From assembly GCA_964531405.1 (NCBI GenBank), contig CAZHHK010000001.1, positions 913-64,912 of the forward strand: a DNA stretch of 64,000 bases. Direction: 5' to 3'. The position numbers and the translations under genes were made by a program. Origin of the DNA: an uncultured Spirochaetales bacterium (GTDB taxonomy: Bacteria > Spirochaetota > GWE2-31-10 > JAFGQB01). Position 1 is the stretch's first letter. Every line of letters starts with the position of its first letter. Of this stretch, positions 7,236-61,238 are shown piece after piece. The notes beneath the pieces were generated by a model. It saw only the letters and a program-made list of their open reading frames with translations, did no database searches and was not told the DNA's origin.

Positions 7236-7904
7236 TTAGTCCCAGCTTTTTTGACTATCGCCTGTTATAGGAATTTTATCTCCCAAAAATTTGGGTTTTG
7301 ATCTGAATATAATTTTTAAAAAAGTTTTGACTCTTGCCATCTTCTCTCTCATCTTGTACCAGCGTATTCCGACATAAGTCATCCTGTCTGCGGTAAAACC
7401 ATAAGTTTTTATTCCCAGCATCCGTCCTATGAAAACAGCCCTGTTTAAATGAAATGCCTGTGTCACAACTATCATTGAATCTATACAAAAGATACTCTTA
7501 GCCCTGTGCACACTGTCATAGGTTTCAAATCCTGCATGATCAAGAAATATGTCTTCTTTGTTAATGTTATGGGACAGCAAAAACTTTTTCATGTTGTTGA
7601 CTTCATCGTAACTTAGCCTGCCATGATCCCCACTTAAAAGAAATTTTTTTACTTTGCCAGCCCTGTAAAGATCCATTGCTCTTAGAAGCCTGTCACGCAA
7701 AACATCACTCAACGCTCCATTGTTATAAACACGGGCACCAAGCACTAAAGCAGCCTGAGTTTCCGGAAAATCATCAATGTTTTTATAAATATATTCTTTG
7801 GAAATATCGACTATAATCATATTTATAAACAACATAAGGATTAAAGCCAAAATGATTACTGACAAAAAAATTATAGAAATTCTTTTTAGTAACGATTTAT
7901 TCAT
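7236..7904 (-). CDS. SanA/YdcF (DUF218) family envelope protein
   Basis: 222 aa; N-terminal TM helix; DUF218-type core (LVLGARV..., LLSGDHG). Confidence 0.6.
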   Translation of the reverse strand: MNKSLLKRISIIFLSVIILALILMLFINMIIVDISKEYIYKNIDDFPETQAALVLGARVYNNGALSDVLRDRLLRAMDLYRAGKVKKFLLSGDHGRLSYDEVNNMKKFLLSHNINKEDIFLDHAGFETYDSVHRAKSIFCIDSMIVVTQAFHLNRAVFIGRMLGIKTYGFTADRMTYVGIRWYKMREKMARVKTFLKIIFRSKPKFLGDKIPITGDSQKSWD

Positions 7905-18135: not shown

Positions 18136-19830
18136 ATGCCGGATCATACTAATCCTCTTATTGTTCAAAGTGATTTTTCATTATTACTTGAGGTGTTTAA
18201 TGATAAATTTGAAACAGTAAGAAACGGATTAACAAAATTTGCCGAATTAATTAAATCACCTGAACATATCCACACATACAGATTAACAAGTTTGAGTTTA
18301 TGGAATGCTGCATCTATAGGTTTATCATATAATGAAATAATTGAATTTCTTAATAAGTACTCGAAATTTGAAATACCACAAAATATAATTGTTGAAATAG
18401 ATCAAATATACAAGAGATTTGGACTTGTAGAAATCCATAAATCAAACAATAAAAATACACTCGTTTTATATGTTAAAGATAATCATATCGAGCAGGAAAT
18501 ACTTTCAAATCCAAAATTAAAAAAATATCTGCTTGATAAAAAAAGTGACAGAGAATATTATTTTAATGAGCTTAACAGAGGAAATTTAAAAGTTGATTTT
18601 TTTAAATACAACATCCCGGTAAATGATATTGCTGGTTATACAAACGGAGACAGTCTCGATTTTAATATAAAATCTATCACTCTTCAAGGACGGGAATTTA
18701 AAATACGTGATTACCAAAAAATGGCAGGAGACTCATTTTATCATGCCGGCTCAAATATAGGAGGACATGGAACGATTGTTTTACCCTGCGGTTCCGGTAA
18801 AACAATTGTTGGATTATACATAATGTCCATGATCAAATCCTATACACTAATATTAACAACTAGTGTTGCCGCAGTTCATCAATGGATAAATGAATTACTC
18901 GATAAAACTACTCTGACAAAAGATCAAATCGGGGAATATACTGGTGATAAAAAAGAAATTAAACCTATCACGATATGTACCTATCAGATATTGATTTATA
19001 GAAAAAATAAAGAGAGCGATTTTTTACACTTTGAAATTTTTCATGCACAAAATTGGGGATTAATAATATATGATGAAGTCCACTTATTACCAGCACCGAT
19101 TTTTAAAATAACTGCTGGAATTCAAAGTAAAAGGAGACTAGGACTAACAGCCACTTTAGTCAGAGAAGACGGCAATGAAAAAGATGTCTTTTGTCTTATT
19201 GGTCCTAAAAAATATGACACACCATGGAAGGTTCTTGAAAAGCAAGGATGGATCGCAGAGGCAAGGTGTTTTGAAATAAAATTACCTTTACCCGAAAAAT
19301 TATTAATGGAATATCTGATTTCTGATCAAAAACTTAAATATACAATATCCTCTAAAAATCCTTATAAAAATATCGCTCTTAAAGATCTGTTATTCAAACA
19401 TCAGGGTCAATTAATTTTAATAATTGGTCATTTCCTTGATCAGTTACGTGAAGTTGCAATGCAATACAACGCTCCTTTGATAACGGGAAAATCTACAAAT
19501 AAGGAAAGAGAAAATACATATAAGAAATTCAGGGATGGAGAAATCAAAATACTTGTTGTAAGTAAAGTCGCCAATTTTTCAATTGATCTACCTGACGCCA
19601 GTGTTTTGATCCAATTAAGCGGGACTTATGGATCAAGACAGGAAGAGGCTCAGAGATTAGGAAGGATTTTACGACCCAAACAAAATAATATTTCATATTT
19701 TTACTCACTGGTAACCAAAGATACTATTGAAGAACAGTATTCGCATAAGAGACAAAGATTTTTAACAGAGCAGGGCTACAACTATGAAATAGATTTTTGG
19801 GATCCTCAGGAATTTGTATGGGAGAAATAA
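18136..19830 (+). CDS. XPB/ERCC3/Ssl2-like SF2 DNA helicase (archaeal/eukaryotic NER-type)
   Basis: 564 aa; Walker A LPCGSGKT; motif II DEVH; XPB-signature RED motif (GLTATLVREDGNEKD); motifs V/VI (QLSGTYGSRQEEAQRLGRILR); N-terminal about 150 aa DRD-like domain. Confidence 0.8.
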   Translation: MPDHTNPLIVQSDFSLLLEVFNDKFETVRNGLTKFAELIKSPEHIHTYRLTSLSLWNAASIGLSYNEIIEFLNKYSKFEIPQNIIVEIDQIYKRFGLVEIHKSNNKNTLVLYVKDNHIEQEILSNPKLKKYLLDKKSDREYYFNELNRGNLKVDFFKYNIPVNDIAGYTNGDSLDFNIKSITLQGREFKIRDYQKMAGDSFYHAGSNIGGHGTIVLPCGSGKTIVGLYIMSMIKSYTLILTTSVAAVHQWINELLDKTTLTKDQIGEYTGDKKEIKPITICTYQILIYRKNKESDFLHFEIFHAQNWGLIIYDEVHLLPAPIFKITAGIQSKRRLGLTATLVREDGNEKDVFCLIGPKKYDTPWKVLEKQGWIAEARCFEIKLPLPEKLLMEYLISDQKLKYTISSKNPYKNIALKDLLFKHQGQLILIIGHFLDQLREVAMQYNAPLITGKSTNKERENTYKKFRDGEIKILVVSKVANFSIDLPDASVLIQLSGTYGSRQEEAQRLGRILRPKQNNISYFYSLVTKDTIEEQYSHKRQRFLTEQGYNYEIDFWDPQEFVWEK

Positions 19831-21293
19831 ATTTATCTTATCTTAATGAAAATGAAATAATAAGCCTTTATGAACTTTTTTTTGGGAACGTTTTAATCAA
19901 AAAAAACGGCTTTTCATACTATGACAATCTGTCGAAAAATTTAACAAAAGAAGAAGTAATAACAAATTCCCTACAAAAATTGAATGATATTGAAAAATCA
20001 ATCTTAAAAATTCTTTCATTTACAACAATAATCCCTTATAAATTTATAAATGAAAAATTAAGCATTTTGCTGGATTTGCCAATTATATCGATTAATAAGG
20101 CAATAAATAATCTTTTGGAAAAAAAATTTATTTTTATAAGAAATGATAATTCGATTGTTATTCCAAATATCTTTTATAAAAATGAAAAACAAAACATTTA
20201 TTTTCAGAAAATAAATCCTCTAATTATAGATAAAAAAAATAATTTACTTACCGATTTTAACAACTTAATAAATATTTTTATTTCTAAGGAGATAAAATTC
20301 ACAAATAATTTCAATCTATATAAAAAAGACATTGAAACTGTAAAAGAGTACATGTCTAATTATTCAAATTTTGATGATACAAAAATTGCCCTTGTCGGTA
20401 ATTTTTTTTGCAGATATTTTTTTGATAATGAAAACAATCTGTTGTATAATTGTTTACAATCTTATTTTGAAATGGAAAATGAAAAAAAACTCTACTGCAT
20501 AATAGAAAACACATTGCCTTCTTTTTATAACCTTTTGATGAATTTTGATGAAGGATATTCAATAAAAATTGATATAGAAAATTTTAAGAAATTATATAAC
20601 AGCTCTTTCCTTATAACTGAATATAAAAACGAACCAATTGATGTAAATTTTGAGAATTTATTATTTCTTTTAAATGAATTTGAATTGATTGAATATAATA
20701 CATCACAAAACTATATAATTTTCCCGGTGAAAAGCAATAATAAAAACATAATCAATGATCAGGTTAACCTCACAACAAGTTTTAATGTTTATATAAACGC
20801 TGACACCAGGAATCCTAATTACTATCTTCTTTCATTCTTTGCCGATATTATAAAATATAATAAAATATCAGAATACGAAATTACTGAAAATTCAATCAAA
20901 AGATGCTCAAGATACAATATTACAATAGAAAACATAAGAGATTTTTTTAAGGCTTATAAAATCGAACTTCCCAAAAATGTTGAAACAACAATACAACAAT
21001 GGTTTGACAAATATGGTTCATACTATTATACGTCTGGCACAATATTTTTCTGCCAGACTACAGAAAAGGGTAAAATTATTAGTTCACTAATAGATAAAGG
21101 TTTTATTCACGCTTATCAGATTAAAAAAGATGAAATTTTTTTAATCCCTGAAGACTCAAAAAAAGAGTTTTTTGAATTTCTAGGGAAAACAGGGATTTAT
21201 TATAATTTTAAGAATCCTGTTAAATTAATGCATAAAAGTAAAATTACACCTACATCGCTAAAACAGATATTGAATTTTATAGAAAATAATTAG
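19818..21293 (+). CDS. Hypothetical protein, XPB-coupled partner (Bax1-like genomic position; family unassigned)
   Basis: The ORF track starts it at TTG 19797. An ATG at 19818 has AGGAA 5 nt upstream and overlaps the XPB stop (19828-19830) by 13 nt, which suggests translational coupling. The roughly 490-aa product is N/K/I-rich with no motif I can assign. Its 3' end overlaps the convergent GDE gene by 4 nt. Confidence 0.5.
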   Translation: MGEINLSYLNENEIISLYELFFGNVLIKKNGFSYYDNLSKNLTKEEVITNSLQKLNDIEKSILKILSFTTIIPYKFINEKLSILLDLPIISINKAINNLLEKKFIFIRNDNSIVIPNIFYKNEKQNIYFQKINPLIIDKKNNLLTDFNNLINIFISKEIKFTNNFNLYKKDIETVKEYMSNYSNFDDTKIALVGNFFCRYFFDNENNLLYNCLQSYFEMENEKKLYCIIENTLPSFYNLLMNFDEGYSIKIDIENFKKLYNSSFLITEYKNEPIDVNFENLLFLLNEFELIEYNTSQNYIIFPVKSNNKNIINDQVNLTTSFNVYINADTRNPNYYLLSFFADIIKYNKISEYEITENSIKRCSRYNITIENIRDFFKAYKIELPKNVETTIQQWFDKYGSYYYTSGTIFFCQTTEKGKIISSLIDKGFIHAYQIKKDEIFLIPEDSKKEFFEFLGKTGIYYNFKNPVKLMHKSKITPTSLKQILNFIENN

Positions 21294-31594: not shown

Positions 31595-32368
31595 TTAAAC
31601 CTTCATCATAGTTTCCCTGAATATCCTTTCGTTATTTTTAAGGAACGAATAAGGCGTTTCATAAGCCTCTTCAAGTTTTTCCTTGACAAGCATATCTTCT
31701 GTTAAACCAAGAACTGGAGGTCTATTTTTATAGAAAAGCAATGTAAATTGAGAATATTTTTTTGAAAGTTCAAGATCATGTATGGAATAATAAATGCTTA
31801 TATTGTTTTCTTTGCTAAAATTATTAATATAATCTAATGCTTTTCTTTTCTGTTTATCTTCCATGGCAAATATCGGTTCATCCATTATAATCAACTTTGA
31901 TCCATACAATAAGCTGAAAGCAAGTATTGTCCTTTGAAGCTCTCCCTTGCTTATATTTTGTGTTTTTTTGTCAAGAATATTTTTTAATTCAAAAATGTTA
32001 ATAAGCTCGTTAATAAAACTAGATTTTTTTATTTCATAAAATCCATTTTGATAAACATATTCCAATAAGTCTCCGATTTTATCCTCGGTCTCAAATTCCA
32101 TATTTTGATAAATAAAAGAAACATATTTTTGTCTATCATGTTCATTTTTAAATTTCTTTGTATCGATATCAAACAAAAAAACTTTTCCTTTAACGGGTTT
32201 AAGTAAACCTGCCGCCAGAAGCAACAGAGTCGATTTGCCTGTGCCGTTTTGTCCTATACAAGTCAAAATGCCTTTTGGCAAATTTAGAGATAAATTTTTA
32301 AATATATTAATATTTGTTTGCGGATAATTAAAGGCAACATCATTAAATTTTACTATTGATTCACTCAT
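31595..32368 (-). CDS. ABC transporter ATP-binding protein (orphan ATPase subunit)
   Basis: 257 aa; Walker A GQNGTGKST; signature ISKGELQRT; Walker B IIMDEP; H-loop. No permease gene is adjacent. 3-nt gap to ygiQ. Confidence 0.8.
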   Translation of the reverse strand: MSESIVKFNDVAFNYPQTNINIFKNLSLNLPKGILTCIGQNGTGKSTLLLLAAGLLKPVKGKVFLFDIDTKKFKNEHDRQKYVSFIYQNMEFETEDKIGDLLEYVYQNGFYEIKKSSFINELINIFELKNILDKKTQNISKGELQRTILAFSLLYGSKLIIMDEPIFAMEDKQKRKALDYINNFSKENNISIYYSIHDLELSKKYSQFTLLFYKNRPPVLGLTEDMLVKEKLEEAYETPYSFLKNNERIFRETMMKV

Positions 32369-32525
32369 GTTTTACTTATATATTTTTTTCTAAAATATTT
32401 CAAGATTGTTTGTTTATATAAAATTTGTAATTCTAAAATCTGAAAAAATAAAAAACTTCAAGAAATATAATAACACATGCATAAAATTTTTTTTGTAGAG
32501 ATTACTTATCCATTCCTTAAAATAT

Positions 32526-32554
32526 TTGACACCGCTCTTTTTAAGAATTATAAT
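32526..32554 (+). promoter_or_regulatory. Consensus sigma70 promoter (TTGACA-17 nt-TATAAT) for the RecD-like gene
   Basis: TTGACA at 32526-32531 is the very triplet the ORF track uses as a TTG start. 17-nt spacer. TATAAT at 32549-32554. The first in-frame ATG is at 32565, 10 nt after the -10, implying a leaderless or near-leaderless mRNA. Confidence 0.5.
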
Positions 32555-32564
32555 AACAAACATT

Positions 32565-34478
32565 ATGAAAAATCAAACTATTGACAAAATGCTATTTAAA
32601 TACACAGAATTAAAAGAACAAATTTTCGAATTATTGAATTTAAATAGTATTGATTACTATACGATAATGGATTTAATCGGTTATTTAAAAAATTATGATG
32701 ACGAAACAATTAAAAGTATATTTGTCATTCTTTCATGCATGTTTGATTCTTTAAAAAATGGAAGCATCTGTCTTAATCTTAACGGAGAACAGATTACTTA
32801 TCAGTTGGAAAAAATAAATTATAATAAGAAATTTTTAGATCCTGTGATAAACAGCATTATCAATAAAAAATTTTTCCATGAAATAATCGGATATGATGAA
32901 AATGATTATAAGCCTCTGATTTTCAAAAATCTTAATAATAAACCCTTTATTTATTTTCAAAAATATTTTTTTTATGAAAAAGAATTAAGACTGTGTCTTG
33001 ATCTACTTTTGTCTAAAAAAAATAAAAATAATTTGCCTGAAAATATAATCGATGAAATAAAAAAAAGCTCACTTGATGAAAAACAAAAAGTTGCTGTTTA
33101 TTTTGGATTAATCAATAATTTTACAATAATCTCCGGCGGTCCGGGCACAGGCAAGACTTATATAATATATTTCATCTTAAGAATGCTTGCCAAACTTGGA
33201 TTAGAGCCCTCAAAGATAAAGGTTGCCGCTCCAACGGGAAGGGCCAGCCAAAGACTTACTGAATCAATAAGATGTAATCTGTTAAAAGAGAACGATATTT
33301 CAATAAAAGATATGATTGGTAAAATCGAAGGAGAAACAATCCATAAAATACTGCATTATTCAAGATTAACAGACAATTTTACTTATAATGAAAACAATAG
33401 ATTTTCAATTGATGCATTAATTGTGGATGAAGTTTCTATGGTGGACCTTGTGTTGATGGCCAAACTTTTAAGATCACTTCCCGAAAAATGCAGGGTTGTT
33501 TTTTTGGGTGATAAAAATCAAATTCCTTCGGTTGAAGCAGGAGCTGTTTTGACAGAATTAATCCCTTCTAATTTCAAAGAGTCGTTCAGTAAAGAGGTGA
33601 ATAAAGTAACAGAAAATTTAAAAGTATCGGAAAAATTAATCAAAACGACGGATAGGATTATAATTCTTGAAAAATGCTTTCGCACTGATGAAAAAATTTT
33701 AAAAGTTGCTGAAATGATAAACCAAAAGAATATATCGAGTTTGGCTATAATAAAAAAAATCAAAATAGACGAAAAAATGTTTTTGGATAGTATAAATGAT
33801 ATTTATATAATCAAACAAGACAAAAATAACAGAGAAGCATTAAATATAGTAATCACAAGGTGGATCAAAAAATATTTTATCGACAAAGGTTACATAAATT
33901 TAATTAATGATATTGCAACGATTGATTCTCAAAAATACGACAGAGAACTCCTTTTAAATTTATTTAATATCATGGGAAATAATAAAATTTTATGCATTAT
34001 TAAAGAAAGTCTATACGGTGTAAATTATATAAATTCGATAATAAAAAATTTGTTTGAAAATAAAATCATTTATAAAACTGAAAAATATTTTTCAGGAATG
34101 CCTATAATTATAAATAAAAATGATTATCGCAAAAATTTATTCAATGGTGATGCGGGGATCATCATAAGAGATATAACGGGGATTTTTAGGGCAGTATTTT
34201 TTAAAAATGACACCTTTCGTTTTTATCCTGTTGACTTCCTCCCTCCTCATGATATGGCATTTAGCATAACGGTACATAAAAGTCAGGGATCGGAATACAA
34301 TGATGTTTTGTTGATACTACCAGATAACGAATCAAACAAACTTTTAACAAAAGAGATTTTATATACTGCAATAACACGATCCAGGTCAACTGTTTACATA
34401 TATTCTGATGAGGAGATTTTAAAAAAGTGTATAATGACTCAAGTTTCAAGAGAGTCGGGGATTAATCTTTACGAATAG
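32565..34478 (+). CDS. RecD-like SF1 DNA helicase (RecD/TraA family, AAA_30 + UvrD_C_2)
   Basis: Walker A GGPGTGKT; motif II ALIVDEVSMVD; C-terminal SF1 block AFSITVHKSQGSEYNDVLLILPD...LYTAITRSRSTVYIY. The start is moved from the ORF-track TTG 32526 to ATG 32565 because 32526-32554 forms a consensus promoter. The ORF ends with TAG at 34476-34478. Confidence 0.75.
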   Translation: MKNQTIDKMLFKYTELKEQIFELLNLNSIDYYTIMDLIGYLKNYDDETIKSIFVILSCMFDSLKNGSICLNLNGEQITYQLEKINYNKKFLDPVINSIINKKFFHEIIGYDENDYKPLIFKNLNNKPFIYFQKYFFYEKELRLCLDLLLSKKNKNNLPENIIDEIKKSSLDEKQKVAVYFGLINNFTIISGGPGTGKTYIIYFILRMLAKLGLEPSKIKVAAPTGRASQRLTESIRCNLLKENDISIKDMIGKIEGETIHKILHYSRLTDNFTYNENNRFSIDALIVDEVSMVDLVLMAKLLRSLPEKCRVVFLGDKNQIPSVEAGAVLTELIPSNFKESFSKEVNKVTENLKVSEKLIKTTDRIIILEKCFRTDEKILKVAEMINQKNISSLAIIKKIKIDEKMFLDSINDIYIIKQDKNNREALNIVITRWIKKYFIDKGYINLINDIATIDSQKYDRELLLNLFNIMGNNKILCIIKESLYGVNYINSIIKNLFENKIIYKTEKYFSGMPIIINKNDYRKNLFNGDAGIIIRDITGIFRAVFFKNDTFRFYPVDFLPPHDMAFSITVHKSQGSEYNDVLLILPDNESNKLLTKEILYTAITRSRSTVYIYSDEEILKKCIMTQVSRESGINLYE

Positions 34479-34484
34479 GAGTAA

Positions 34485-37400
34485 ATTATTAAATTCATAG
34501 CAGATTTTCATATACATTCAAGTTATTCGGTTGCAACCAGCAAACATCTTAATCCCACAAATCTTGACAAATGGGCAAGAATAAAAGGCATTAATGTTAT
34601 AGGAACGGGAGATTTTACTCATCATAAGTGGACTGAAGAACTTGAAAAAAAGCTTAGCGAGTCAGGAGAGGGGTTGTATGAATTAAAAGAAGAGTTTAAG
34701 GATAAAGAATTTATTGGTAATAATAATCCTGTAAAATTTATTCTGTCCGGCGAAATAAGTTTAATCTATAAAAAAAAAGATAAAGTAAGAAAAATTCATA
34801 ATTTAGTTTTATCTTCGGATTTTGCTACGATAAGAAAAATTCAGGAAAAATTATCAAAAATCGGGAACATAACTTCTGATGGGAGACCTATACTGGGATT
34901 TGATGCAAAGAATTTTCTTGATTTGATTTTGAATATAAATGAAAATTGTCTGGTTATACCTGCTCATATCTGGACGCCATGGTTTTCAGTTTTGGGCTCC
35001 ATGTCAGGATTTGACTCAATAAAGGAATGCTATGAGGATTTAAGCAGGTATATATTTGCAATTGAAACCGGATTGTCTTCAGATCCAGCAATGAATTGGA
35101 TATGCTCTTTTCTCGATGATTACGCCGTAATATCAAATTCTGATGCGCATTCACCTGAAAATCTCGGCAGGGAAGCAAATATCTTCGATACTGATTTAAC
35201 TTATAACGGGATAATAAATGCGTTAAAATCAAACGATAAGAATAAGTTTTTATCTACAATCGAGTTTTTCCCTCAGGAAGGCAAATATCATTATGATGGA
35301 CATCGTAAATGCAATGTTGTAATTGATCCTATAAATGCATTAAAAAATAATAACATATGTTCTGTATGTGGTAAAAAATTAACTCTTGGAGTAATGCACA
35401 GAGTTGTTGAGCTTTCAGACAGAACTACTATCGATGAATGTCCTAATGTCCGTCCATACTATTCCCTGATACAGCTTAAAGAGCTGCTTTCAGAAATTTT
35501 TAATTCGTCACCCTCTTCAAAAAAAGTTGATGATAATTATTTCAATCTTATTAAAATGTTTGGATCGGAGTTTGATATACTATTAAACAAATCACTAGAA
35601 GAGTTAAAATCATCAGGCAACGAACTTTTAGTTGAGGGAATAAAAAGGATGAGAGAAGGGAATGTAATCATACAGGAAGGCTATGATGGCGAGTATGGAA
35701 GAATAAAAGTTTTTAATGAAGATGAAGTCTCATCGCTTAAATCAAAAGATTTGTTTTTTATTCCTATTGAGAAGAAAACGATAAATAAAAGAGACAAGAT
35801 TGATTTTGAGGAATTTAAAAAAATAAAGGATAATAATAAAAAGAATGAAGCCTTTAAAGAAAACGCACACACATACAGCGATGGCTTCTCCCTGAATAAT
35901 CTTCAGTATGAAGCGGTTAAAAATATTTCTGGTGCAAGTATCGTAATCGCAGGACCAGGCACTGGCAAGACCAAAACTTTAACCTATAAAATTGTGGAAT
36001 TAATTAATGCAGGCATTAAACCTGAAAACATTCTAGCAATAACTTTTACTAATAACGCGGCAAACGAGATTAAAGACCGTTTGAAAATATTACTAAAAAA
36101 TTCTAGAAACATCAATGAAATAACTGTTTCGACTTTTCATTCCCTGGGTTATAAAATCATAAATGATTTTATAACAATCGGCGATAAAACGTCGATTATA
36201 ATCGATGATGATGATAAGGAATTTATTATAAAACAAATTTCTGATTTACAAAAGACCGAAATAAAAAAAGCAGTTAAAGTTATTTCTGATTTAAAGCAAT
36301 TTATTATTAAAAATAATCAAGCAGATGACAGATTTAATGAAATATTTTCTTGCTACAATGCTTTCTTAACAAAAAATAATCTTTATGATCTGGACGATCT
36401 TATTTATTTGCCAGTAACGGTTTTAAGAGAAAATAAAGAAATATTAGATAATATCAGAAAAAAATACACTTATCTTATTGTTGATGAATATCAGGATGTA
36501 AATCCCATTCAATATGAATTAATAATGTTGATTTCGGGGAAAGTCGATGCAAATATTACGGTAATTGGAGACCCAAATCAGGCAATTTACGGATTCAGGG
36601 GATCAAATTCTATGTTTATAAAAAGATTCCTGTTAGATTTTCCTGATGCAAAAATATTCAAACTTGAAAAAAGTTACAGATGCTCAAACAGAATTCTCAA
36701 TGCAAGTTCTCAGATTTTAAACAGTAGCTTTTTGCTTAATGGCTTGGAAGATGGCATAAACATAAACATTAACGAATTTAATACAGAGGGTGAAGAAGCC
36801 GAATTTACAGCACGTAAAATCGAACAACTTGTAGGAGGCTTAAGATTTTTTTCGATGGATTCAAAAATCGTTGATAGCGGCGATGAAGGCGGTTATGCAT
36901 TATCGGATATTGCAGTATTATGCAGGACTTATGATTTAATGAATCCTTTAAAAAAAGCATTTATCGATCATTCAATCCCTTGTGAAATTATTTCGAAGAT
37001 AAGTATATACAAAAAACATCCATTTGATAAAATTATTAATATTTTAAAATTCTTTATAAACCCTGAAAATAAATTTCTTATGGACAAAGCTTTAAGGATC
37101 AATGGAATTACAAAAGACACATTAAAATATTATAATAAAAACAAACTCATTGATTCGATTAAAAATCTAATTGATATTTATTTTCCTGATGAGATAAAGT
37201 CCAATCCAGAAGATTTTAAAATATTTTTTAATGAAATTGATAACTACGAAAATAATGCAAAAGCATTTATTAACTCGGTTTTGTTAAATAACACAGAAGA
37301 ATCTTTTAATATAAAAAAGGAAGCAGTAAGTATAATGACAATGCATGCTTCAAAAGGATTAGAATTTAAATGCGTATTCATAATCGGCTGTAACGATAAA

Positions 37401-37655
37401 TACATGCCGTTAAATCTATATGAAAATCAGCAAACCGATCTCGATGAAGAAAAAAGACTGCTTTATGTTGCTATGACAAGAGCTAAATCAAATCTTTTTA
37501 TAAGTTTCTCTAAAAAAATAAAATTATTTGGCACAAACATCAATGCAAATATAAGTCCTTTTTTAAAAAAAATAAAAAAAGACTTAATCGAATATGAAAA
37601 AATTAAATCGGATGCCTTTAAAAAACCTAAAGACAAACAGTTGGAATTATTTTAA
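34485..37655 (+). CDS. Fusion protein: N-terminal PHP phosphoesterase with Zn-ribbon (EndoQ/COG1379-like) + C-terminal UvrD/PcrA-family SF1 helicase
   Basis: The ORF track starts at TTG 34674. The same frame is open back to 34485 and encodes a canonical PHP N-terminus (ADFHIHSSYS...GTGDFTHHKW). Further PHP motifs follow (PAHIWTPWF, DAHSPENLG), then a Zn-ribbon-like HYDGHRKC...CSVCGKK. The helicase part has Walker A IAGPGTGKT, motif II VDEYQDVNP, motif III GDPNQAIYGFRGS and UvrD_C (MTMHASKGLEFKCVFIIG, LLYVAMTRAK). No ATG/GTG/TTG occurs in frame between 34485 and 34674, so the start must be non-canonical (ATT 34485 or 34488, or ATA 34497). Confidence 0.75.
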   Translation: MIKFIADFHIHSSYSVATSKHLNPTNLDKWARIKGINVIGTGDFTHHKWTEELEKKLSESGEGLYELKEEFKDKEFIGNNNPVKFILSGEISLIYKKKDKVRKIHNLVLSSDFATIRKIQEKLSKIGNITSDGRPILGFDAKNFLDLILNINENCLVIPAHIWTPWFSVLGSMSGFDSIKECYEDLSRYIFAIETGLSSDPAMNWICSFLDDYAVISNSDAHSPENLGREANIFDTDLTYNGIINALKSNDKNKFLSTIEFFPQEGKYHYDGHRKCNVVIDPINALKNNNICSVCGKKLTLGVMHRVVELSDRTTIDECPNVRPYYSLIQLKELLSEIFNSSPSSKKVDDNYFNLIKMFGSEFDILLNKSLEELKSSGNELLVEGIKRMREGNVIIQEGYDGEYGRIKVFNEDEVSSLKSKDLFFIPIEKKTINKRDKIDFEEFKKIKDNNKKNEAFKENAHTYSDGFSLNNLQYEAVKNISGASIVIAGPGTGKTKTLTYKIVELINAGIKPENILAITFTNNAANEIKDRLKILLKNSRNINEITVSTFHSLGYKIINDFITIGDKTSIIIDDDDKEFIIKQISDLQKTEIKKAVKVISDLKQFIIKNNQADDRFNEIFSCYNAFLTKNNLYDLDDLIYLPVTVLRENKEILDNIRKKYTYLIVDEYQDVNPIQYELIMLISGKVDANITVIGDPNQAIYGFRGSNSMFIKRFLLDFPDAKIFKLEKSYRCSNRILNASSQILNSSFLLNGLEDGINININEFNTEGEEAEFTARKIEQLVGGLRFFSMDSKIVDSGDEGGYALSDIAVLCRTYDLMNPLKKAFIDHSIPCEIISKISIYKKHPFDKIINILKFFINPENKFLMDKALRINGITKDTLKYYNKNKLIDSIKNLIDIYFPDEIKSNPEDFKIFFNEIDNYENNAKAFINSVLLNNTEESFNIKKEAVSIMTMHASKGLEFKCVFIIGCNDKYMPLNLYENQQTDLDEEKRLLYVAMTRAKSNLFISFSKKIKLFGTNINANISPFLKKIKKDLIEYEKIKSDAFKKPKDKQLELF

Positions 37656-37686
37656 AGTTGCACCAACAGAAATAAAATAATCTCGC

Positions 37687-38508
37687 TTAAAAAACTTCAT
37701 AATTAAGGTTGCCATTTTCCACAGAAACCTTTAAGAAGCAGTCCACGCCCTTCTCCCTATTGTTTAATACGATATATTTTGTCCCCCGAATTTTTTTTTC
37801 ATCATATTTATGAAGATGACCACATATAAAAAAATCGACATTATATTTATCACAAAGGTCTATCAAAAAATATGCTTCCTCAGGATAAGTCATTGATGTT
37901 GGGGTTTCAAATTCCTGATCTGTCGGGCTGTAATGAGTAAATAAAATTTTATGTTTTGCATTAGTTTTATCAAGCCTTTCTTTTAACCAATTTTTTTGCT
38001 GCTCGCCCAGCGTACCATTTGCTGTATCAAAAAAAAGATAATAAGTATTGCCGATTGTAAAGTCATACATAGTTCTTCCGAAATATTTTTTATAATATTT
38101 AAATCCGTCATTATAAATATCATGATTTCCAATAACAGGATAAAAAGGCAGGCTTGTTTTTTTTATGTCCGCTTTAATTAAATCATAAGCTTCCTTTTTT
38201 CCGTTTTGTATAAGATCGCCTGTAACTACTATAAAAGAAATCCCCCAGTTATTCTTATGCTTCTCAATGTCTTCAAAATAGCCAAGCTGCGCATTGTAAT
38301 AATGCGTATCCGTAATTACGATAAAGCTGTAATTATTAACATCCGCTAAAGTAGGTGCATTATAGTCTTTTAAAGAATCATTCTTGTCAAATCTGTTATC
38401 AACATCCGATGATGAAAATACTCCCCCAAGATCGATATAATCACAACCGGACAATAAAAAAATAAAAGCTAGAATTAAAACAATCATATTATTTTGTTTT
38501 AAACGCAT
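37687..38508 (-). CDS. Calcineurin-like metallophosphoesterase lipoprotein
   Basis: 273 aa; signal peptide with lipobox-like LLSGC; metallophosphatase motifs (VITDTHY, VTGDLIQNG, VIGNHD, CGHLH). Confidence 0.75.
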   Translation of the reverse strand: MRLKQNNMIVLILAFIFLLSGCDYIDLGGVFSSSDVDNRFDKNDSLKDYNAPTLADVNNYSFIVITDTHYYNAQLGYFEDIEKHKNNWGISFIVVTGDLIQNGKKEAYDLIKADIKKTSLPFYPVIGNHDIYNDGFKYYKKYFGRTMYDFTIGNTYYLFFDTANGTLGEQQKNWLKERLDKTNAKHKILFTHYSPTDQEFETPTSMTYPEEAYFLIDLCDKYNVDFFICGHLHKYDEKKIRGTKYIVLNNREKGVDCFLKVSVENGNLNYEVF

Positions 38509-39271
38509 AAATAACTCCTATTCTAAACCATCCTTTGCTTATTATTCCTGCCATGGGCAGAGATCCTGCATAACCTATGCCACCATTAAAATAAATTGTA
38601 AGATTGTTCGGCAGATGTATATAATTTAAAAATTCAAGCTGCCAGTAATTAAATGAATAAATTTCGTATTCAGGGATATTGCCAAGAGAAAGTCCTGCAG
38701 AAAAAAAACACATCGGATGAACAAGCATTGTTAATTTCCATTTGAAAGAAGCGTTGAAAAGCCAGTCTTTTTTGTAAACGCTATTAGGATCTTCTATATC
38801 TATATCCACAAACCGTAAGGCAAATCCTGAATCAATACTGAATGTAAAATATTTTATGAAATTGAACATCAATAACATTTTGATTATTATATCATGCTCG
38901 GCAACTTTATAAATACTAAAATCCCTGAATTTATAATCAACATCAAATGCTAAAAATTTTATTGGTCGGTAATAAGTACCAACATCAAAAGTTTTTATTT
39001 TTGGAGTGTTTTCTCCAAGACAAAGCTTCGATGTAAAAAAAAGTGAATCACTGAAATTTAGTGAAAAATTATATTCATAAAAAAAACTGAAAGGCAGTCC
39101 TCTTGTTTTATCGAATGTATTAGAAAAATTGAAAATGATATAATCTGGAATAAATTTATGAATCTTATAAATTATTTTATCTTTTTTCTCCCAGAAAGGA
39201 TTTTCATAAGTAAAAGCAGGGAAAATAATAATAAATATGACAATTGAAACAAATAATATTTTTTTTAACAT
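38489..39271 (-). CDS. Hypothetical secreted protein (possible outer-membrane beta-barrel)
   Basis: 260 aa; N-terminal signal peptide; alternating aromatic/hydrophobic pattern, Y/F-rich; overlaps the downstream phosphoesterase gene by 20 nt; no family assignment. Confidence 0.4.
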   Translation of the reverse strand: MLKKILFVSIVIFIIIFPAFTYENPFWEKKDKIIYKIHKFIPDYIIFNFSNTFDKTRGLPFSFFYEYNFSLNFSDSLFFTSKLCLGENTPKIKTFDVGTYYRPIKFLAFDVDYKFRDFSIYKVAEHDIIIKMLLMFNFIKYFTFSIDSGFALRFVDIDIEDPNSVYKKDWLFNASFKWKLTMLVHPMCFFSAGLSLGNIPEYEIYSFNYWQLEFLNYIHLPNNLTIYFNGGIGYAGSLPMAGIISKGWFRIGVIYAFKTK

Positions 39272-39499: not shown

Positions 39500-42082
39500 A
39501 TGATTGGATCCAACAATTTAAATTTAAGAGATTGGCAACAATATTATATAAAACTCGATCCTTCTTATGGCAACTTAATAGCCAGTATTTTACAGTCTAT
39601 TTTTAAAAATAAGTATTCAACGATCAATTCACTCATAAATACAATCAAAAAAAAACAAACTAAAATAGTTACCGAAGAGGGAACTATCGATTTGCTTTTT
39701 AAATTTGATGAAGTAATAAAGCTTACTCCGAGATTTCAAATAACAAATACGGTCACTGGCGAAGACAATAAAATTAAAAATTCATTATCCATAGTATGTG
39801 ACTTTATAATTACACTCAATTTTAACAATATTAAAGGCTTTAATAACGAATATATAAAAAGTGTACAAGAACTTCTAGATAAATTGACAGCAATAAATAA
39901 AAAAATATTAATCAAATATTTATTAAAGCAATTAACTAAAGGAAATTATTTTGTTTCTATGGATTTTTTGGAAAAAGAAATATTTGAATCAAAAATACCT
40001 TTTACCGATTACACCGTACAGGATATTTTCCAAAAATTTAATGTTACGAGTTATAATACTATTTATTCACTTTTAAATTTGAATAATTATGACGATAATA
40101 ACAATATAACATCAAATGTAAAAGTAATAAGCATCCCTTTTACTCCTTATCATATGGATACGTATCTTTCCAGAGAATTGCAACATGTTTATAGAATAAA
40201 ATATAATATCGGCAAAGGAGAATTAAATACAAAATTACTTTATCTTAATGCAGATTATCCTATTGAAGATAAAAAAACTATTTATGATGCACTGGTTTTA
40301 AGCATTTATAATAATTATCTACCAAATAAATTAGACAGAACTTGTAATGATGATTTCAAATTTGAAACTGATGATATGACACAACAAGAAAATAAATCAT
40401 TAGAAGACTCATCTACAACTGAAGTACAAGATATAAAAGATAAATTCGAAAGAAAAAAAATGATTTTAAAGATTTTAAAAGCCGATAAAATCCCAAAACA
40501 CGAAATAGATTTTCTGGATTCTATAGATTATGAAAAACTTCACATTAAAAACACCTTCGTCTCGGTTTTAAATTATCTTTCAAATCCTTTCCTTTCAAAA
40601 ATAATAAACACAGCTCAGTTTAGATTTTTAAAGCAGTACATAATAACTAACTATGGCCCAAGCATAAAAGAAAGCATAGATGAAGAGACTAGAGCTTTGA
40701 TTGAAAAAAAATTTATAGAATATATTCAATCTAAAAACTGTTATTTTATTGAATTTTATAATAATATTCTTCAAAATATATGCGACTTAACCGGAGAGAA
40801 AAAATTTCTAGTTGATACGATAATCAGAACATCAAGTATATTTAAAAATTTTTGTTTTACAAAATATCTTGTAAAACAAAAAAAAACATCAATAAATAAT
40901 TTTCAAACATTTTTAAAAATAATAGGAAGTGACTTTTTTGCATTCTTAAATGATGGATCTGAAGATGATATGGTTGTTGTGCCTTATTTGAAAATCAAAG
41001 AATTCCTTCTTTTTTTGATTACATCGGAAATAAACTCAACCTGGCAAAAGTTAAAGGATCTTTTTGAAGAATTATTAAAAACTGTAAAATCGATTGTTTT
41101 TACGGCAAATCAAAGCGGCGCAGATATTCGCATGGTTATGATAGACAGTACAAATTATAATATAACTGTTAAAGATAGAAGTAATGTAAAAAATTTTCAA
41201 ATTAAGACTATTGAAGATATAGAATTTATATTTCAGGATAAAGAACAGGAAAAGTTCAAGACTATAGTTAAGATGCTTTATAACCTCCATTATAAAAGTG
41301 GTTTTGGTTTTGATAACAAAAAAGATTTCAATAAGCTTATAGAGATGTACAATGCAAGATGCGATGAATACAGTCTCTATAAATTAAAGCTTGATCAATA
41401 TGAAGAGGCAACATCAAGCGCCAAGGGGTTTCTTGCTTTTTTAAAAAAACTCTTTTTTTGGATCCCTATGGCTATTAACAACCATAATTTACTCAGGATA
41501 ATGAAAAAAAATGAAATTGTTGCTAAAAAAATTAAGCTTTATTATACTCAACCTGTAGAATGCCAGAAGACAAAAGTACTAGTGGGTAATAATAGCGAAC
41601 TGGGAAACATAAAAGAGAAAATAATGGAATTCATTAATACAAAAGATGAAATCGATTTGATAAAAGCTAAAAGAAAGCAGGAAAAAGTAAAAGAAATTCA
41701 ACCAAAGAAAGAAATCAAAAAAGAAGAAGAGAAAAAAATACCATTGCCTGAATTAGACAGTGAAGAACTCAAGCTTTTTGAATTTATTAATAAATATCTT
41801 AAAGCCGATAAAGATGTCATGTTTACTAGAAGCTCAAACATGGATGAAGAAATAATTGTTATATATATCAAAGACAATAAATCTCCAACGTTGTTTTCCA
41901 ATAATTTAAAAGACTTAAATACTATCGACGAATATTCTACAAGATATTTTAATATAAAACAGCTAATTAATAAAAGGTATATAAGCCAGAAAGAATTAAT
42001 AAGAACAACAAATGATAATAAAAAAATCTGCTATCTCACCTATGCACGGCAGTATTATCAATATATGAATAAATATAGATAA
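39500..42082 (+). CDS. Large hypothetical cytoplasmic protein (860 aa, no recognisable domain)
   Basis: Long uninterrupted ORF; AAAGG SD upstream; no signal peptide; no P-loop; K/E-rich linker (KKEIKKEEEKK); followed 4 nt later by the DUF62 gene. Confidence 0.5.
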   Translation: MIGSNNLNLRDWQQYYIKLDPSYGNLIASILQSIFKNKYSTINSLINTIKKKQTKIVTEEGTIDLLFKFDEVIKLTPRFQITNTVTGEDNKIKNSLSIVCDFIITLNFNNIKGFNNEYIKSVQELLDKLTAINKKILIKYLLKQLTKGNYFVSMDFLEKEIFESKIPFTDYTVQDIFQKFNVTSYNTIYSLLNLNNYDDNNNITSNVKVISIPFTPYHMDTYLSRELQHVYRIKYNIGKGELNTKLLYLNADYPIEDKKTIYDALVLSIYNNYLPNKLDRTCNDDFKFETDDMTQQENKSLEDSSTTEVQDIKDKFERKKMILKILKADKIPKHEIDFLDSIDYEKLHIKNTFVSVLNYLSNPFLSKIINTAQFRFLKQYIITNYGPSIKESIDEETRALIEKKFIEYIQSKNCYFIEFYNNILQNICDLTGEKKFLVDTIIRTSSIFKNFCFTKYLVKQKKTSINNFQTFLKIIGSDFFAFLNDGSEDDMVVVPYLKIKEFLLFLITSEINSTWQKLKDLFEELLKTVKSIVFTANQSGADIRMVMIDSTNYNITVKDRSNVKNFQIKTIEDIEFIFQDKEQEKFKTIVKMLYNLHYKSGFGFDNKKDFNKLIEMYNARCDEYSLYKLKLDQYEEATSSAKGFLAFLKKLFFWIPMAINNHNLLRIMKKNEIVAKKIKLYYTQPVECQKTKVLVGNNSELGNIKEKIMEFINTKDEIDLIKAKRKQEKVKEIQPKKEIKKEEEKKIPLPELDSEELKLFEFINKYLKADKDVMFTRSSNMDEEIIVIYIKDNKSPTLFSNNLKDLNTIDEYSTRYFNIKQLINKRYISQKELIRTTNDNKKICYLTYARQYYQYMNKYR

Positions 42083-59270: not shown

Positions 59271-61238
59271 CTATTTAGTCAGGTCCAATAAGTAAGGAAT
59301 ATCATTTATAATAATTATTTTATAATTAAAAACATTGGTTTTAATTATACTGTTACTAAAAATATATTTATTACCTTGATAATAAAATATTCCAGATACA
59401 TTCCTTTTATCTTTTATAACAATATCATCCGGAAGTGGAATTTTATCATTTTCCCTCAATGAAATGATGTGCCATTTTCTATTTTTTTTACCTGCATCTT
59501 TATTATATACTTTTAATAGATTTTTTTTATTATTTTCTATTTTATACATTTTTTTTACACCATTTCTTATTTCATACATATAATCGTAAATCCTGTCATA
59601 ATCGATATCAAAATAACATTCGGTATCTTTGTTATTATACTCGTTTATTTTTACTTCATAGATGCCATCAAGATTATAATCCCAATATTTTTCCATTCTA
59701 TCATTAAAATTATACTCCATATAGTCATACAAATTATAACTATCTGTTGTTTTGTACTTTATATAATCTATTTTGCCGTCTTTATATTTTTCATACAATT
59801 CATATATACCGTTTTCATTTAAGTCTTTTAATACTTCATCTATTATCCCATTTTTATAAAATTTTCTTTCTTCAAAAATATTATTACCGTTAAAATCATA
59901 ATCTTTATAAACGATATTTGCATCTGAATACTTGGTATAAATATATACCCTGCCATATTCTTCCTTATGCGAAATAATATTCATATTTTTTTTAAGATCA
60001 AAATCCTTTAAATCTTTTGTCCTTGGAAAATATTTAGAGACAGTAACATAGTATTTATCACTTTTAATATTATTACTATAATTTTCAATAGAATTTAAAG
60101 ACTGATCATTGTAATTAAAAATGTACTTTGTGTAATTAGCATTATTTTTATAGACTATAAAGCTATCGAGCTTCCCGTCATTATAGAATGTTGTTTTATA
60201 TTCATAAATCCCGTCCTGATTTCCATCAAAAATATCACTGATCATTATTCCTTTTTCATATTCAAATTTTTGTTCCCATCTTCCGTCTTCATCATCATCC
60301 AGCATTCTTTCTCCGGAATAATCAAGAAAAGCTCCTTTTAAATTTTTATCCTGGCTTATAATATCAATCAAAGCTTTGCTTCCAAAAAAATCAATTGTAA
60401 GATAATAATTTTGAGCTATTTCGTTCCATTCTGTAAGCAAGGCTACAATCTGTTTCTTATTAAAATTTTTACCTTTAAGTAAGAGGTTATATAAAACCTT
60501 CCTTTTGTATTTAGATGAAATCTCATTAGACGCTTTCAATTTAAAATAATCATCATATACGCCAAAAAGCTCTTTCTGAGAATTATAATATAGTGATCTT
60601 AAAAACAATAATCTTTCTTTTGAGTAATAATTTGATGAGAGTGCATTGTATCCTGCAAGAAAATCTTTTATATTTATTTTACTATATAAAACACCATATA
60701 ACAGCAAATAATAATCAAAATCCAGACTAGCAAACATCTTTTTTGCATCAGCAACAGCCTGTGGAATCATTTTTATAAATTCCGCTCTTTTTGAATAAAA
60801 CAATAATTCTATATAATTATTAAAATCTTCCGCGGTTATTTTTTCTTTAAACGATGAGAGTAAATTAAAAGCTTTTACTCCCTTATCAAAGGATCTAACC
60901 GATTTATAAACCATTGCGGCGTTTTTAACCAGATAATACTTCTCGATAAAATATGAATTGCCAAGATTTTTCAAAATCTTGTCGGCATTCTGCTCTTCCA
61001 GATATCCTTCATAAACAGTTTTATCAAGAATCATGTTGTAAATATAAAATTTTTCAGGGAATATATTTGAGTACTCTGCAGACCTGTCAAGCATATCTTT
61101 CGATGTTTCCAGTTTATTATCATTAAAATAATAATAGGCTTTATCCAAATAGAATCTGGCAAGATCTTTATCTTCAGAATAAAGATTAACAAGAATAAGA
61201 TTGATTACTAAAAAAAAACAAAATTTTCTAAAATACAT
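59271..61238 (-). CDS. Secreted repeat protein (MORN-variant / YwqK-like aromatic-Asp repeats)
   Basis: 655 aa; signal peptide; many iterations of Y/W-x-DG-x-Y...Y-x-NG motifs (GIYEYKTTFYNDGKLD, DGKIDYIKYK, YKNGIIDEV). Confidence 0.45.
   Translation of the reverse strand: MYFRKFCFFLVINLILVNLYSEDKDLARFYLDKAYYYFNDNKLETSKDMLDRSAEYSNIFPEKFYIYNMILDKTVYEGYLEEQNADKILKNLGNSYFIEKYYLVKNAAMVYKSVRSFDKGVKAFNLLSSFKEKITAEDFNNYIELLFYSKRAEFIKMIPQAVADAKKMFASLDFDYYLLLYGVLYSKINIKDFLAGYNALSSNYYSKERLLFLRSLYYNSQKELFGVYDDYFKLKASNEISSKYKRKVLYNLLLKGKNFNKKQIVALLTEWNEIAQNYYLTIDFFGSKALIDIISQDKNLKGAFLDYSGERMLDDDEDGRWEQKFEYEKGIMISDIFDGNQDGIYEYKTTFYNDGKLDSFIVYKNNANYTKYIFNYNDQSLNSIENYSNNIKSDKYYVTVSKYFPRTKDLKDFDLKKNMNIISHKEEYGRVYIYTKYSDANIVYKDYDFNGNNIFEERKFYKNGIIDEVLKDLNENGIYELYEKYKDGKIDYIKYKTTDSYNLYDYMEYNFNDRMEKYWDYNLDGIYEVKINEYNNKDTECYFDIDYDRIYDYMYEIRNGVKKMYKIENNKKNLLKVYNKDAGKKNRKWHIISLRENDKIPLPDDIVIKDKRNVSGIFYYQGNKYIFSNSIIKTNVFNYKIIIINDIPYLLDLTK

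Follow-up and report, generated by a model that had tools for sequence, protein, structure and literature searches.

A bacterial EndoQ–UvrD fusion with a predicted β-clamp tether, encoded next to recD in a low-GC Spirochaetota-like genome

Introduction

Endonuclease Q (EndoQ) is known from Pyrococcus furiosus (PF1551), Thermococcus kodakarensis, Methanosarcina acetivorans and Bacillus pumilus, and from entries 5zb8 and 7k30-33 of the Protein Data Bank (PDB). It nicks DNA specifically at lesions and is no end-resecting nuclease (PMC4357722). The archaeal enzyme binds a sliding clamp, the proliferating cell nuclear antigen (PCNA), via a C-terminal PCNA-interacting protein (PIP) box, and the PCNA ring stimulates it (PMC4858679); published archaeal models put a helicase after the EndoQ nick (PMC4357722; PMC8438529). 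Here we describe an EndoQ fused to a UvrD-type helicase, encoded directly downstream of recD in a stretch of 64,000 nucleotides (nt) of contig CAZHHK010000001.1 from an uncultured Spirochaetales bacterium. This whole stretch is referred to as the window, and positions are given in its numbering.

In the literature EndoQ figures as a mainly archaeal enzyme, found in “some” or “a limited number of” bacteria (PMC4357722 among the sources). Three EndoQ families, two bacterial, have been distinguished “based on the domain organization” (Miyazono et al. 2018, after Shiraishi 2017). Shiraishi et al. (2016, Sci Rep; PMC4858679) noted β-clamp motifs in bacterial EndoQ homologues and tabulated them in Suppl. 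Fig. S1, with the C-terminal motif at positions 401-464 in short forms and 941-1244 in long forms. The long forms include those from Geobacter metallireducens (WP_004512662, QLELF), Desulfovibrio vulgaris (WP_012612878), Zymomonas mobilis (WP_011241259) and Treponema azotonutricium (WP_043922803), with further ones from Rhodothermus marinus, Spirochaeta thermophila and Brachyspira sp. The fusion in the window has the same size class and the same C-terminal QL[SDEK]LF, its QLELF being identical to that of the Geobacter protein, and the tabulated long homologues almost certainly belong to the same family. The available part of that paper's text makes no mention of the helicase, and the window protein differs in that its clade is low in GC, Spirochaetota-like and uses ATT as start codon. 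As far as its sequence tells, the window's gene is a further member, from that clade, of an already tabulated family. A full-text literature search found neither a description of an EndoQ–UvrD fusion nor an experiment on a long form in the accessible papers. One of the three EndoQ families is probably the helicase-fused form.

Like the characterised EndoQ enzymes, the fusion has PHP, Zn-binding and C-terminal domains at full length, with identical metal ligands and an identical uracil/hypoxanthine pocket, and both carry a C-terminal sliding-clamp peptide. It differs in the 590 amino acids (aa) of UvrD-type helicase appended to the EndoQ part and in having a bacterial QLxLF clamp motif instead of a PIP box. 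Incision 5′ of the lesion and removal of the damaged strand, as we propose for the fusion, are also features of repair initiated by UVDE, Nfo or Xth; in contrast, the nuclease fold of those enzymes is unrelated, they rely on separate flap nucleases or polymerases, and they have no fused motor.

Results

An EndoQ module joined to a UvrD-type helicase

The window proteins were scanned against Pfam, NCBIfam (at curated cut-offs) and PADLOC-DB, and an AlphaFold model of the fusion was computed with 44 homologues as input (pLDDT 79, pTM 0.62). Residues 6-412 align with residues 5-385 of the 400 in P. furiosus EndoQ (PfuEndoQ; PDB 5zb8/7k30, phmmer E=3e-46) at about 31% identity, and the N-terminal part covers positions 2-374 of the 374 in model TIGR00375. 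The score against this model is 171 bits, below the curated cut-off of 326.6; a homologue from a sampled locus (L030) likewise reaches 162 bits. Foldseek matched the AlphaFold model to PfuEndoQ with a TM-score of 0.85-0.87 and a root mean square deviation of 3.4 Å. An EndoQ architecture had been proposed for this region in a preliminary description of the DNA, and these matches confirm it. A newer Pfam release than the one scanned here also models the C-terminal EndoQ part (PF27218, MJ0043_C).

The metal ligands H8, H10, E89, H104, H160, D219 and H221 correspond to H8, H10, E76, H84, H139, D193 and H195 of PfuEndoQ, and the lesion-pocket residues G195 and S197 to G169 and S171; the roles of the PfuEndoQ residues are described in PMC8307549. 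All are invariant in an alignment of 44 homologues from many phyla, on which invariance was judged throughout. The first ligand of the Zn-ribbon is His in the fusion and Cys in PfuEndoQ; the four ligands are invariant in a second alignment as well. Between phyla the EndoQ domain is 57-65% identical, with a mean column identity of 72%.

The second half of the protein, residues of about 469-1040, matches UvrD-helicase (PF00580, E=4e-64, 217 bits) and UvrD_C (PF13361, E=9e-42, 144 bits), both above the gathering scores. Its helicase motifs are Q (L469..Q473), I (GPGTGKT, 489), Ia (TFTNNA, 519), II (DEYQD, 666), III (GDPNQAIYGFR, 694), V (TMHASKGLEF, 951) and VI (VAMTRA, 994), and the residues of Walker A, DEYQD and motifs III, V and VI are invariant. 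The closest solved relatives by PDB sequence matching are Rep (6e-64), PcrA (4e-60) and UvrD (9e-60). The model superimposes over about 640 residues on Deinococcus radiodurans UvrD-DNA complexes (Foldseek E=1e-39, TM 0.72-0.75), with the 1A/1B/2A/2B fold, and far less well on AddA, AdnB and RecB (TM 0.3-0.55). The fusion shares with UvrD/PcrA/Rep and the MutL-UvrD system every helicase motif, the fold of four subdomains with 2B among them, and the idea, as proposed here, that unwinding begins at a repair nick. The fusion is nevertheless no orthologue of these helicases, scoring 321 bits against the PcrA equivalog (cut-off 911), 320 against Rep (951) and 256-268 against UvrD (965-1144). Its nickase is covalently attached rather than recruited, and its C-terminus carries a clamp motif instead of the UvrD/PcrA C-terminal domain.

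The preliminary description had seen here a PHP/Zn-ribbon-UvrD fusion of roughly 1050 aa; profile and structure matches agree with it for a protein of 1055 aa, the homology being far stronger than chance would give, and the motifs it quoted (HIH, PAHIWTPW, DAH, HYDGHRKC...CSVCGKK, GPGTGKT, DEYQD and GDPNQAIYGFRG) are all present. To judge from these conserved residues, both enzymatic halves look functional. The linker that joins them is ~55 residues long and partly disordered in the model, with a conserved helix at residues 440-455 (nt about 35805-35852) that reads [IL]NFDLxEY[RK]xL in homologues and IDFEEFKKIK in the window, between disordered flanks. One homologous protein (P0037; P identifiers denote homologous proteins and L identifiers sampled loci) is ~370 aa longer, at 1451 aa, and carries a LAGLIDADG homing-endonuclease domain (PF14528), which suggests an intein insertion.

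A conserved C-terminal clamp-binding motif

The fusion ends in KKPKDKQLELF, where a Lys-rich tail precedes a predicted β-clamp-binding motif. Among 248 full-length homologues, 222 (90%) have Q-x-x-[LMIV]-[FLMWY] within the last 14 aa, 149 at the very end, and the commonest form is QLSLF, usually following a Lys-rich stretch. The background of the same motif is 1.4% in internal 14-aa windows and 6.7% at the C-termini of RecD proteins.

A second, degenerate pentapeptide lies inside the protein, 15 residues past the end of the EndoQ fold, where many homologues have Q-x-x-L-F. At offsets of 13-16 past GxDGxxG, 109 of 239 homologues have the strict form Q..[LMIV]F, and F424 is nearly invariant. Residues 420-436 have pLDDT values <50, and the C-terminal tail is disordered in the model as well. 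Stand-alone bacterial EndoQ proteins stop at the position of the internal motif (L079, for example, ends in ...QKTLF), so the internal motif is probably a relic of an ancestral C-terminal clamp motif.

A widespread chromosomal gene without a conserved partner

Homologues of the fusion number >8000 in the protein database, and the top 120, from many phyla, share its architecture. Clustering at 50% identity gave 3657 clusters at E<=1e-3, 2308 at 1e-10 and 996 at 1e-30, and the best 150 are almost all 1000-1250 aa long. At least 586 stretches of GTDB species-representative genomes encode the EndoQ domain, in well over ten phyla by record titles. The closest relatives of the source organism are Spirochaetota metagenome-assembled genomes.

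For genomic context, 160 loci were fetched with an alignment of the EndoQ domain, 80 from GTDB species-representative genomes and 80 from metagenomes. The UvrD module is fused directly downstream of EndoQ in 139 of the 160, eight have what look like stand-alone EndoQ genes, and in one (L038, 8592-11554) EndoQ and UvrD are split into adjacent overlapping open reading frames (ORFs). All-against-all clustering of the ORFs from 80 loci revealed no conserved neighbour, no family recurring in more than eight of them. In two loci (L088, L089) the fusion lies between TatD/Dus and RDD-family genes, and distant homologues adjoin LptFG, trehalose synthase and similar genes. The EndoQ domain had no match in 50,697 phage records and one in 72,556 plasmid records, on a 733-kb Brevibacillus replicon. 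The fusion is a stand-alone, widespread chromosomal gene.

These data bear on whether the family serves anti-phage or anti-plasmid defence, an alternative raised in the preliminary description, in which the fusion would detect uracil-containing, deaminated or modified invading DNA, nick it and unwind it for destruction. The helicase half does match GajB of Gabija and other UvrD-type PADLOC models, at up to 269 bits, and an antiviral role of Bacillus EndoQ against a uracil-DNA phage has been raised as possible (PMC8307549). However, among the best 25 of the 48 PADLOC matches, all are of GajB or RecD type and lie on the generic helicase core (residues 461-1038), and none is on residues 1-460. 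Neither the window nor the sampled loci have a defence-island context, the surroundings are of a metabolic or housekeeping kind, and no partner gene is conserved. The very high conservation across phyla is unlike that of fast-evolving defence genes, phage records are without a match and plasmid records have the single one, and the predicted clamp tether would point to the host's own replicating DNA. We regard defence as the least probable of the readings weighed here.

Some individual loci deserve mention. The stand-alone bacterial EndoQ genes in L022 (6970-8337), L044 (5478-6707), L055 (10001-11248) and L079 (4026-5273) encode proteins of 409-455 aa that are 55-59% identical to the fused domain; that in L022 retains the linker and is missing the helicase. 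In a Bacteroidota-like locus (L172, 11102-14277) the fusion gene lies 2-5 kb upstream of a cluster encoding Peptidase_S24 (LexA/UmuD-like), PDDEXK_3, a Y-family polymerase and SRAP (an AP-site sensor), which suggests a DNA-damage neighbourhood.

The adjacent RecD resembles the RecBCD alpha subunit

The gene upstream of the fusion was described at the outset as RecD/TraA-like (GGPGTGKT, UvrD_C_2), rightly so. Its product matches AAA_19, AAA_30 and UvrD_C_2 in Pfam and scores 398.8 bits against the recD model TIGR01447 (curated cut-off 310.15) over positions 23-594 of 597; the RecD2 model gives 262 bits (cut-off 500). In the Joint Genome Institute (JGI) annotation the identical protein appears as exodeoxyribonuclease V alpha subunit. 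The nearest homologues with genomic context, at 43-44% identity, are the third gene of canonical recC-recB-recD operons (L086, L087) or solitary (L084, L085); the homologues P0128 and P0129 are encoded in such operons. From the TIGR01447 score and the operons of the closest relatives, we conclude that this protein is probably a RecBCD alpha subunit, its adjacency to the fusion being a local rearrangement.

No RecC or full-length RecB was found by tblastn in the 64-kb window or in loci L001-L085, and a later tblastn search found no RecC in the 160 EndoQ loci. A metagenome scan with the RecD protein alone returned 264 pattern matches, none of them a relative. The RecC of L086 as query led to P0396 (41% identity), encoded in a recC-recB operon of a Logan assembly (L173, 1984-9062). 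No recD start occurs in the 43 nt that remain after recB in L173; in L086 and L087, by contrast, the end of recB and the start of recD overlap. In composition L173 is the closest to the window among the loci tested (GC 29.5% versus 30.7%, tetranucleotide r=0.99), and identity to L086 is 41% for the RecC of L173 and 43% for the RecD of the window, the pattern expected. L173 may hold the recCB of the source lineage.

The preliminary description had proposed that RecD (5′-3′) and the fusion (3′-5′) form a new two-motor helicase-nuclease comparable with RecBCD, AddAB and AdnAB, in which a PHP nuclease replaces the RecB-family nuclease; as weighed here, this would be a heterodimer that processes DNA ends or nicks. 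Those machines indeed combine a UvrD-like motor with a nuclease, as the fusion does, and a RecD motor gene adjoins it in the window. The two genes stand behind one strong candidate promoter, with 9 nt and no terminator-like site between the recD stop and the fusion start. A further adjacency, independent of the first, exists in L030 (9992-15454), where a RecD1-type gene (TIGR01447, 349 bits) begins 34 nt past the fusion, in reversed order compared with the window; no recB or recC lies within 10 kb of the pair. By our estimate roughly 0.03 recD neighbours would be expected by chance among about 194 neighbour slots.

Conservation of synteny had been set beforehand as the test of this proposal, and the survey found the pairing not conserved. 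L030 is the one locus in 160 in which recD adjoins the EndoQ-domain gene: recD is upstream in none of the 109 loci with >=2.5 kb of upstream sequence and downstream in one of the 85 with >=2.5 kb downstream. Among fusion homologues with context, the three closest (L004, L088, L089) have no recD beside them, L004 offering 10 kb upstream. The RecD itself exceeds the cut-off for a RecBCD alpha subunit and has its nearest relatives in recC-recB-recD operons, the helicase half resembles UvrD/PcrA/Rep and not AddA, AdnB or RecB, and EndoQ nicks at lesions rather than resecting ends. The Pfam and NCBIfam scans matched no RecB-family (PD-(D/E)xK) nuclease model in either RecD or the fusion, no RecC/AddB-like partner came up in the tblastn searches above, and the fusion is conserved as a single gene with a clamp tether of its own. 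A shared machine thus has a slim chance of being correct. Slimmer still is a variant in which RecD was recruited from a recCB operon to EndoQ–UvrD here and, independently, in the L030 organism, for bipolar unwinding (3′-5′ and 5′-3′) from a lesion-specific nick; such an assembly would be a counterpart of RecBCD that starts at nicks and has a PHP nuclease at its core. Treating the RecD pairing as incidental removes a tempting but unsupported claim of a new machine.

A model for excision repair by a single polypeptide

The reading we favour, with a probability of roughly 60%, is that the locus combines two distinct units, transcribed together in this lineage alone: the recD of a RecBCD enzyme, with recC and recB at other genomic sites, and a self-contained EndoQ–UvrD enzyme for alternative excision (nucleotide incision) repair of deaminated or abasic (AP) sites in one polypeptide. 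A dedicated nick-and-unwind repair module had been noted as an alternative in the preliminary description, and it is the one that the evidence favours.

In this scheme the C-terminal QLELF would tether the enzyme to the β sliding clamp on newly replicated DNA, in parallel with archaeal EndoQ and PCNA. The EndoQ module would flip out deoxyuridine (dU), deoxyinosine (dI) or an AP site, substrates to which the conserved pocket residues point, and cut the phosphodiester bond 5′ of the lesion, leaving a 3′-OH and a 5′-phosphate on the lesion. The UvrD-type 3′-5′ motor would then load at the nick, track along the intact strand and displace the strand whose 5′ end carries the lesion. Degradation by a 5′ exonuclease or flap nuclease, resynthesis by a polymerase and sealing by a ligase would complete the repair. 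The presence of EndoQ and helicase in one polypeptide lends genomic support to a helicase step at the EndoQ nick.

A different division of labour within the same enzyme is unlikely, though it deserves to be taken seriously. The helicase might scan DNA or clear it of proteins to deliver EndoQ before or around incision (on the clamp behind the fork, for instance), or might release EndoQ from tightly bound nicked product. UvrD, PcrA and Rep are protein-displacement translocases, and the partly disordered linker with its conserved helix would, as modelled, allow varied geometry. EndoQ also cuts single-stranded DNA containing dU or dI (PMC6202378), and a motor that generates or tracks single strands could feed it; archaeal EndoQ, moreover, needs PCNA for efficient turnover (PMC4858679). 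Against this, the published EndoQ pathway models place the helicase after the nick, and our data do not discriminate between the two orders. Of the activities of UvrD in mismatch and excision repair, unwinding from a nick has the best documentation.

Several points weigh against EndoQ–UvrD as a nick-and-unwind repair enzyme that is independent of RecD. To displace the damaged strand from a nick on the 5′ side of the lesion, a 3′-5′ motor has to move along the intact one, a geometry that we assume by analogy with MutL-UvrD mismatch repair. The fusion falls short of the TIGR00375 cut-off, and by a wide margin of the equivalog cut-offs for PcrA, Rep and UvrD, so the fused bacterial clade is a distinct EndoQ subfamily whose specificity could differ. 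L173 would fit a lineage in which recD moved away from recCB, yet may stem from an organism other than that of the window. The tight 9-nt junction, together with an independent adjacency in L030 slightly above chance, gives a small probability to a link with RecD. Finally, no biochemical study of any long-form EndoQ homologue was found in the accessible literature. The combination, which the preliminary description did not recognise as characterised, is on record all the same, the long forms having been tabulated in 2016 as proteins of about 950-1250 aa (PMC4858679, Fig. S1).

EndoQ, a UvrD motor and a predicted β-clamp tether make up a large, strongly conserved bacterial family, contrary to the description of EndoQ as rare in Bacteria. 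The fusion serves as natural “Rosetta-stone” evidence for the proposed clamp-coordinated helicase step at the nick in EndoQ-initiated repair, and its single polypeptide should allow incision, unwinding and clamp coupling to be dissected together. If the proposal is right, many anaerobic and uncultured bacteria would possess a glycosylase-independent route for the removal of uracil, hypoxanthine and AP sites. The breadth of the family, the clamp tether and the link between EndoQ and a helicase will not surprise the specialists who tabulated the proteins in 2016.

The fusion gene starts at an ATT codon

Homologues of the fusion start with MKFIADFHIHS, and their Met aligns with an ATT codon at 34488, 6 nt past a Shine-Dalgarno AGGAG. 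The reading frame is open over 34485-37655, with TTG 34674 as the first ATG, GTG or TTG. The three closest homologues with DNA context, from genomes of 26-27% GC, have the same layout of AGGAG, 6-7 nt and ATT AAA TT[CT] AT[ACT] GC (L004, 9987-10010; L088, about 7105-7130; L089, about 7797-7825; window, 34477-34499). Across the loci the codon at the Met1 position is ATG in 137, TTG in 11, GTG in 5 and ATT in 3, these last being exactly L004, L088 and L089.

The public gene call of the fusion begins at TTG 34674 and gives 993 aa without the HxH motif (an exact look-up of this product gave no entry), and the other public calls of the clade likewise start at a downstream TTG or ATG, losing the catalytic D6, H8 and H10. 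From the alignment of the homologues' Met1 with ATT and the conserved layout, the calls P0001/P0121 (993 aa), P0011, P0012, P0032 and P0064 are, in our reading, N-terminally truncated; genomes of this clade are thus annotated with a fusion that lacks its catalytic N-terminus, on account of the ATT start codon. We rejected the possibility that the truncation is real, which would remove the invariant D6, H8 and H10 and is contradicted by the conservation of Shine-Dalgarno, ATT and KFIADFHIH in four genomes of the clade. Read-through or frameshifting that would join recD to the fusion was rejected too: the recD stop TAG and a second in-frame stop, TAA at 34482-84, intervene, and homologues start at the Met aligned with ATT. 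A weak ATT start behind a strong Shine-Dalgarno suggests deliberately low expression of the fusion. Ribosomes that end at the recD stop, 10 nt upstream, may feed the ATT start and so couple the two genes.

Promoter, locus layout and surrounding genes

Both genes lie on the + strand in the same frame (Table 1). The perfect consensus promoter noted in the preliminary description is the sole 12/12 match to TTGACA-17-TATAAT in the scanned region (32300-37800), where weaker promoter-like matches are no more frequent than in shuffled sequence; that it acts as a promoter is likely from its sequence. A TTG at 32526, given as the start of an ORF in the list compiled with the preliminary description, is really the -35 hexamer. 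The recD ATG comes 10 nt past the -10 hexamer with no Shine-Dalgarno, and the transcript would have a very short leader or be near-leaderless. A terminator scan of the same region found none.

Table 1 Features of the recD–endoQ-uvrD locus in window coordinates
Feature	Position	Strand	Basis or remark
Putative sigma-70-type promoter, TTGACA-17 nt-TATAAT	32526..32554	+	Divergent intergenic region; sequence reading, promoter function inferred
recD, 637-aa SF1B helicase, Walker A GGPGTGKT	32565..34478	+	ATG 32565, TAG ending at 34478; TIGR01447
Shine-Dalgarno AGGAG of the fusion gene	34477..34481	+	Overlaps recD stop TAG (34476-78)
endoQ-uvrD fusion gene, 1055 aa, ATT start codon	34488..37655	+	Stop 37653-55; alignment to Met1 of homologues
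EndoQ module, aa 1-412 (PHP catalytic, Zn-binding and C-terminal helical domains)	34488..35723	+	PDB 5zb8/7k30, Foldseek
Zn-ribbon ligands H272, C275, C291, C294 (HRKC...CSVC)	35301..35369	+	Alignment to 5zb8; four residues invariant
Internal degenerate clamp-like pentapeptide KDLFF, aa 420-424	35745..35759	+	Aligns with Q-x-x-L-F of homologues; predicted disordered linker
UvrD/PcrA/Rep-type SF1A helicase, aa 469-1040	35892..37607	+	Pfam, PDB sequence matches, Foldseek
C-terminal β-clamp-binding motif QLELF, aa 1051-1055	37638..37652	+	Consensus QL[SD]LF; binding predicted

The window is a chromosomal, housekeeping context. Its other genes include glgX and those for a hybrid histidine kinase, an acyl-CoA synthetase, an XPB-type helicase, an amylo-alpha-1,6-glucosidase (GDE_C) family protein, a pseudouridine synthase, an HrpA-like helicase, thioredoxin, a radical-SAM protein, an ABC ATPase and a metallophosphoesterase. 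An Rfam search and a tRNA scan of the whole window gave no match. Three ORFs, 39500-42082 (+, 860 aa), 38489-39271 (-, 260 aa) and 59271-61238 (-, 655 aa), had no Pfam or NCBIfam match; the first two, both <=2 kb downstream of the fusion gene, also had no PADLOC match. The XPB-type repair helicase (18136-19830) scores 804.8 bits against NF045503 (cut-off 610). A 498-aa ORF (19797-21293) overlaps the end of its gene and has a weak, just sub-threshold match to Helicase_C_3; it could encode a Bax1-like partner nuclease.

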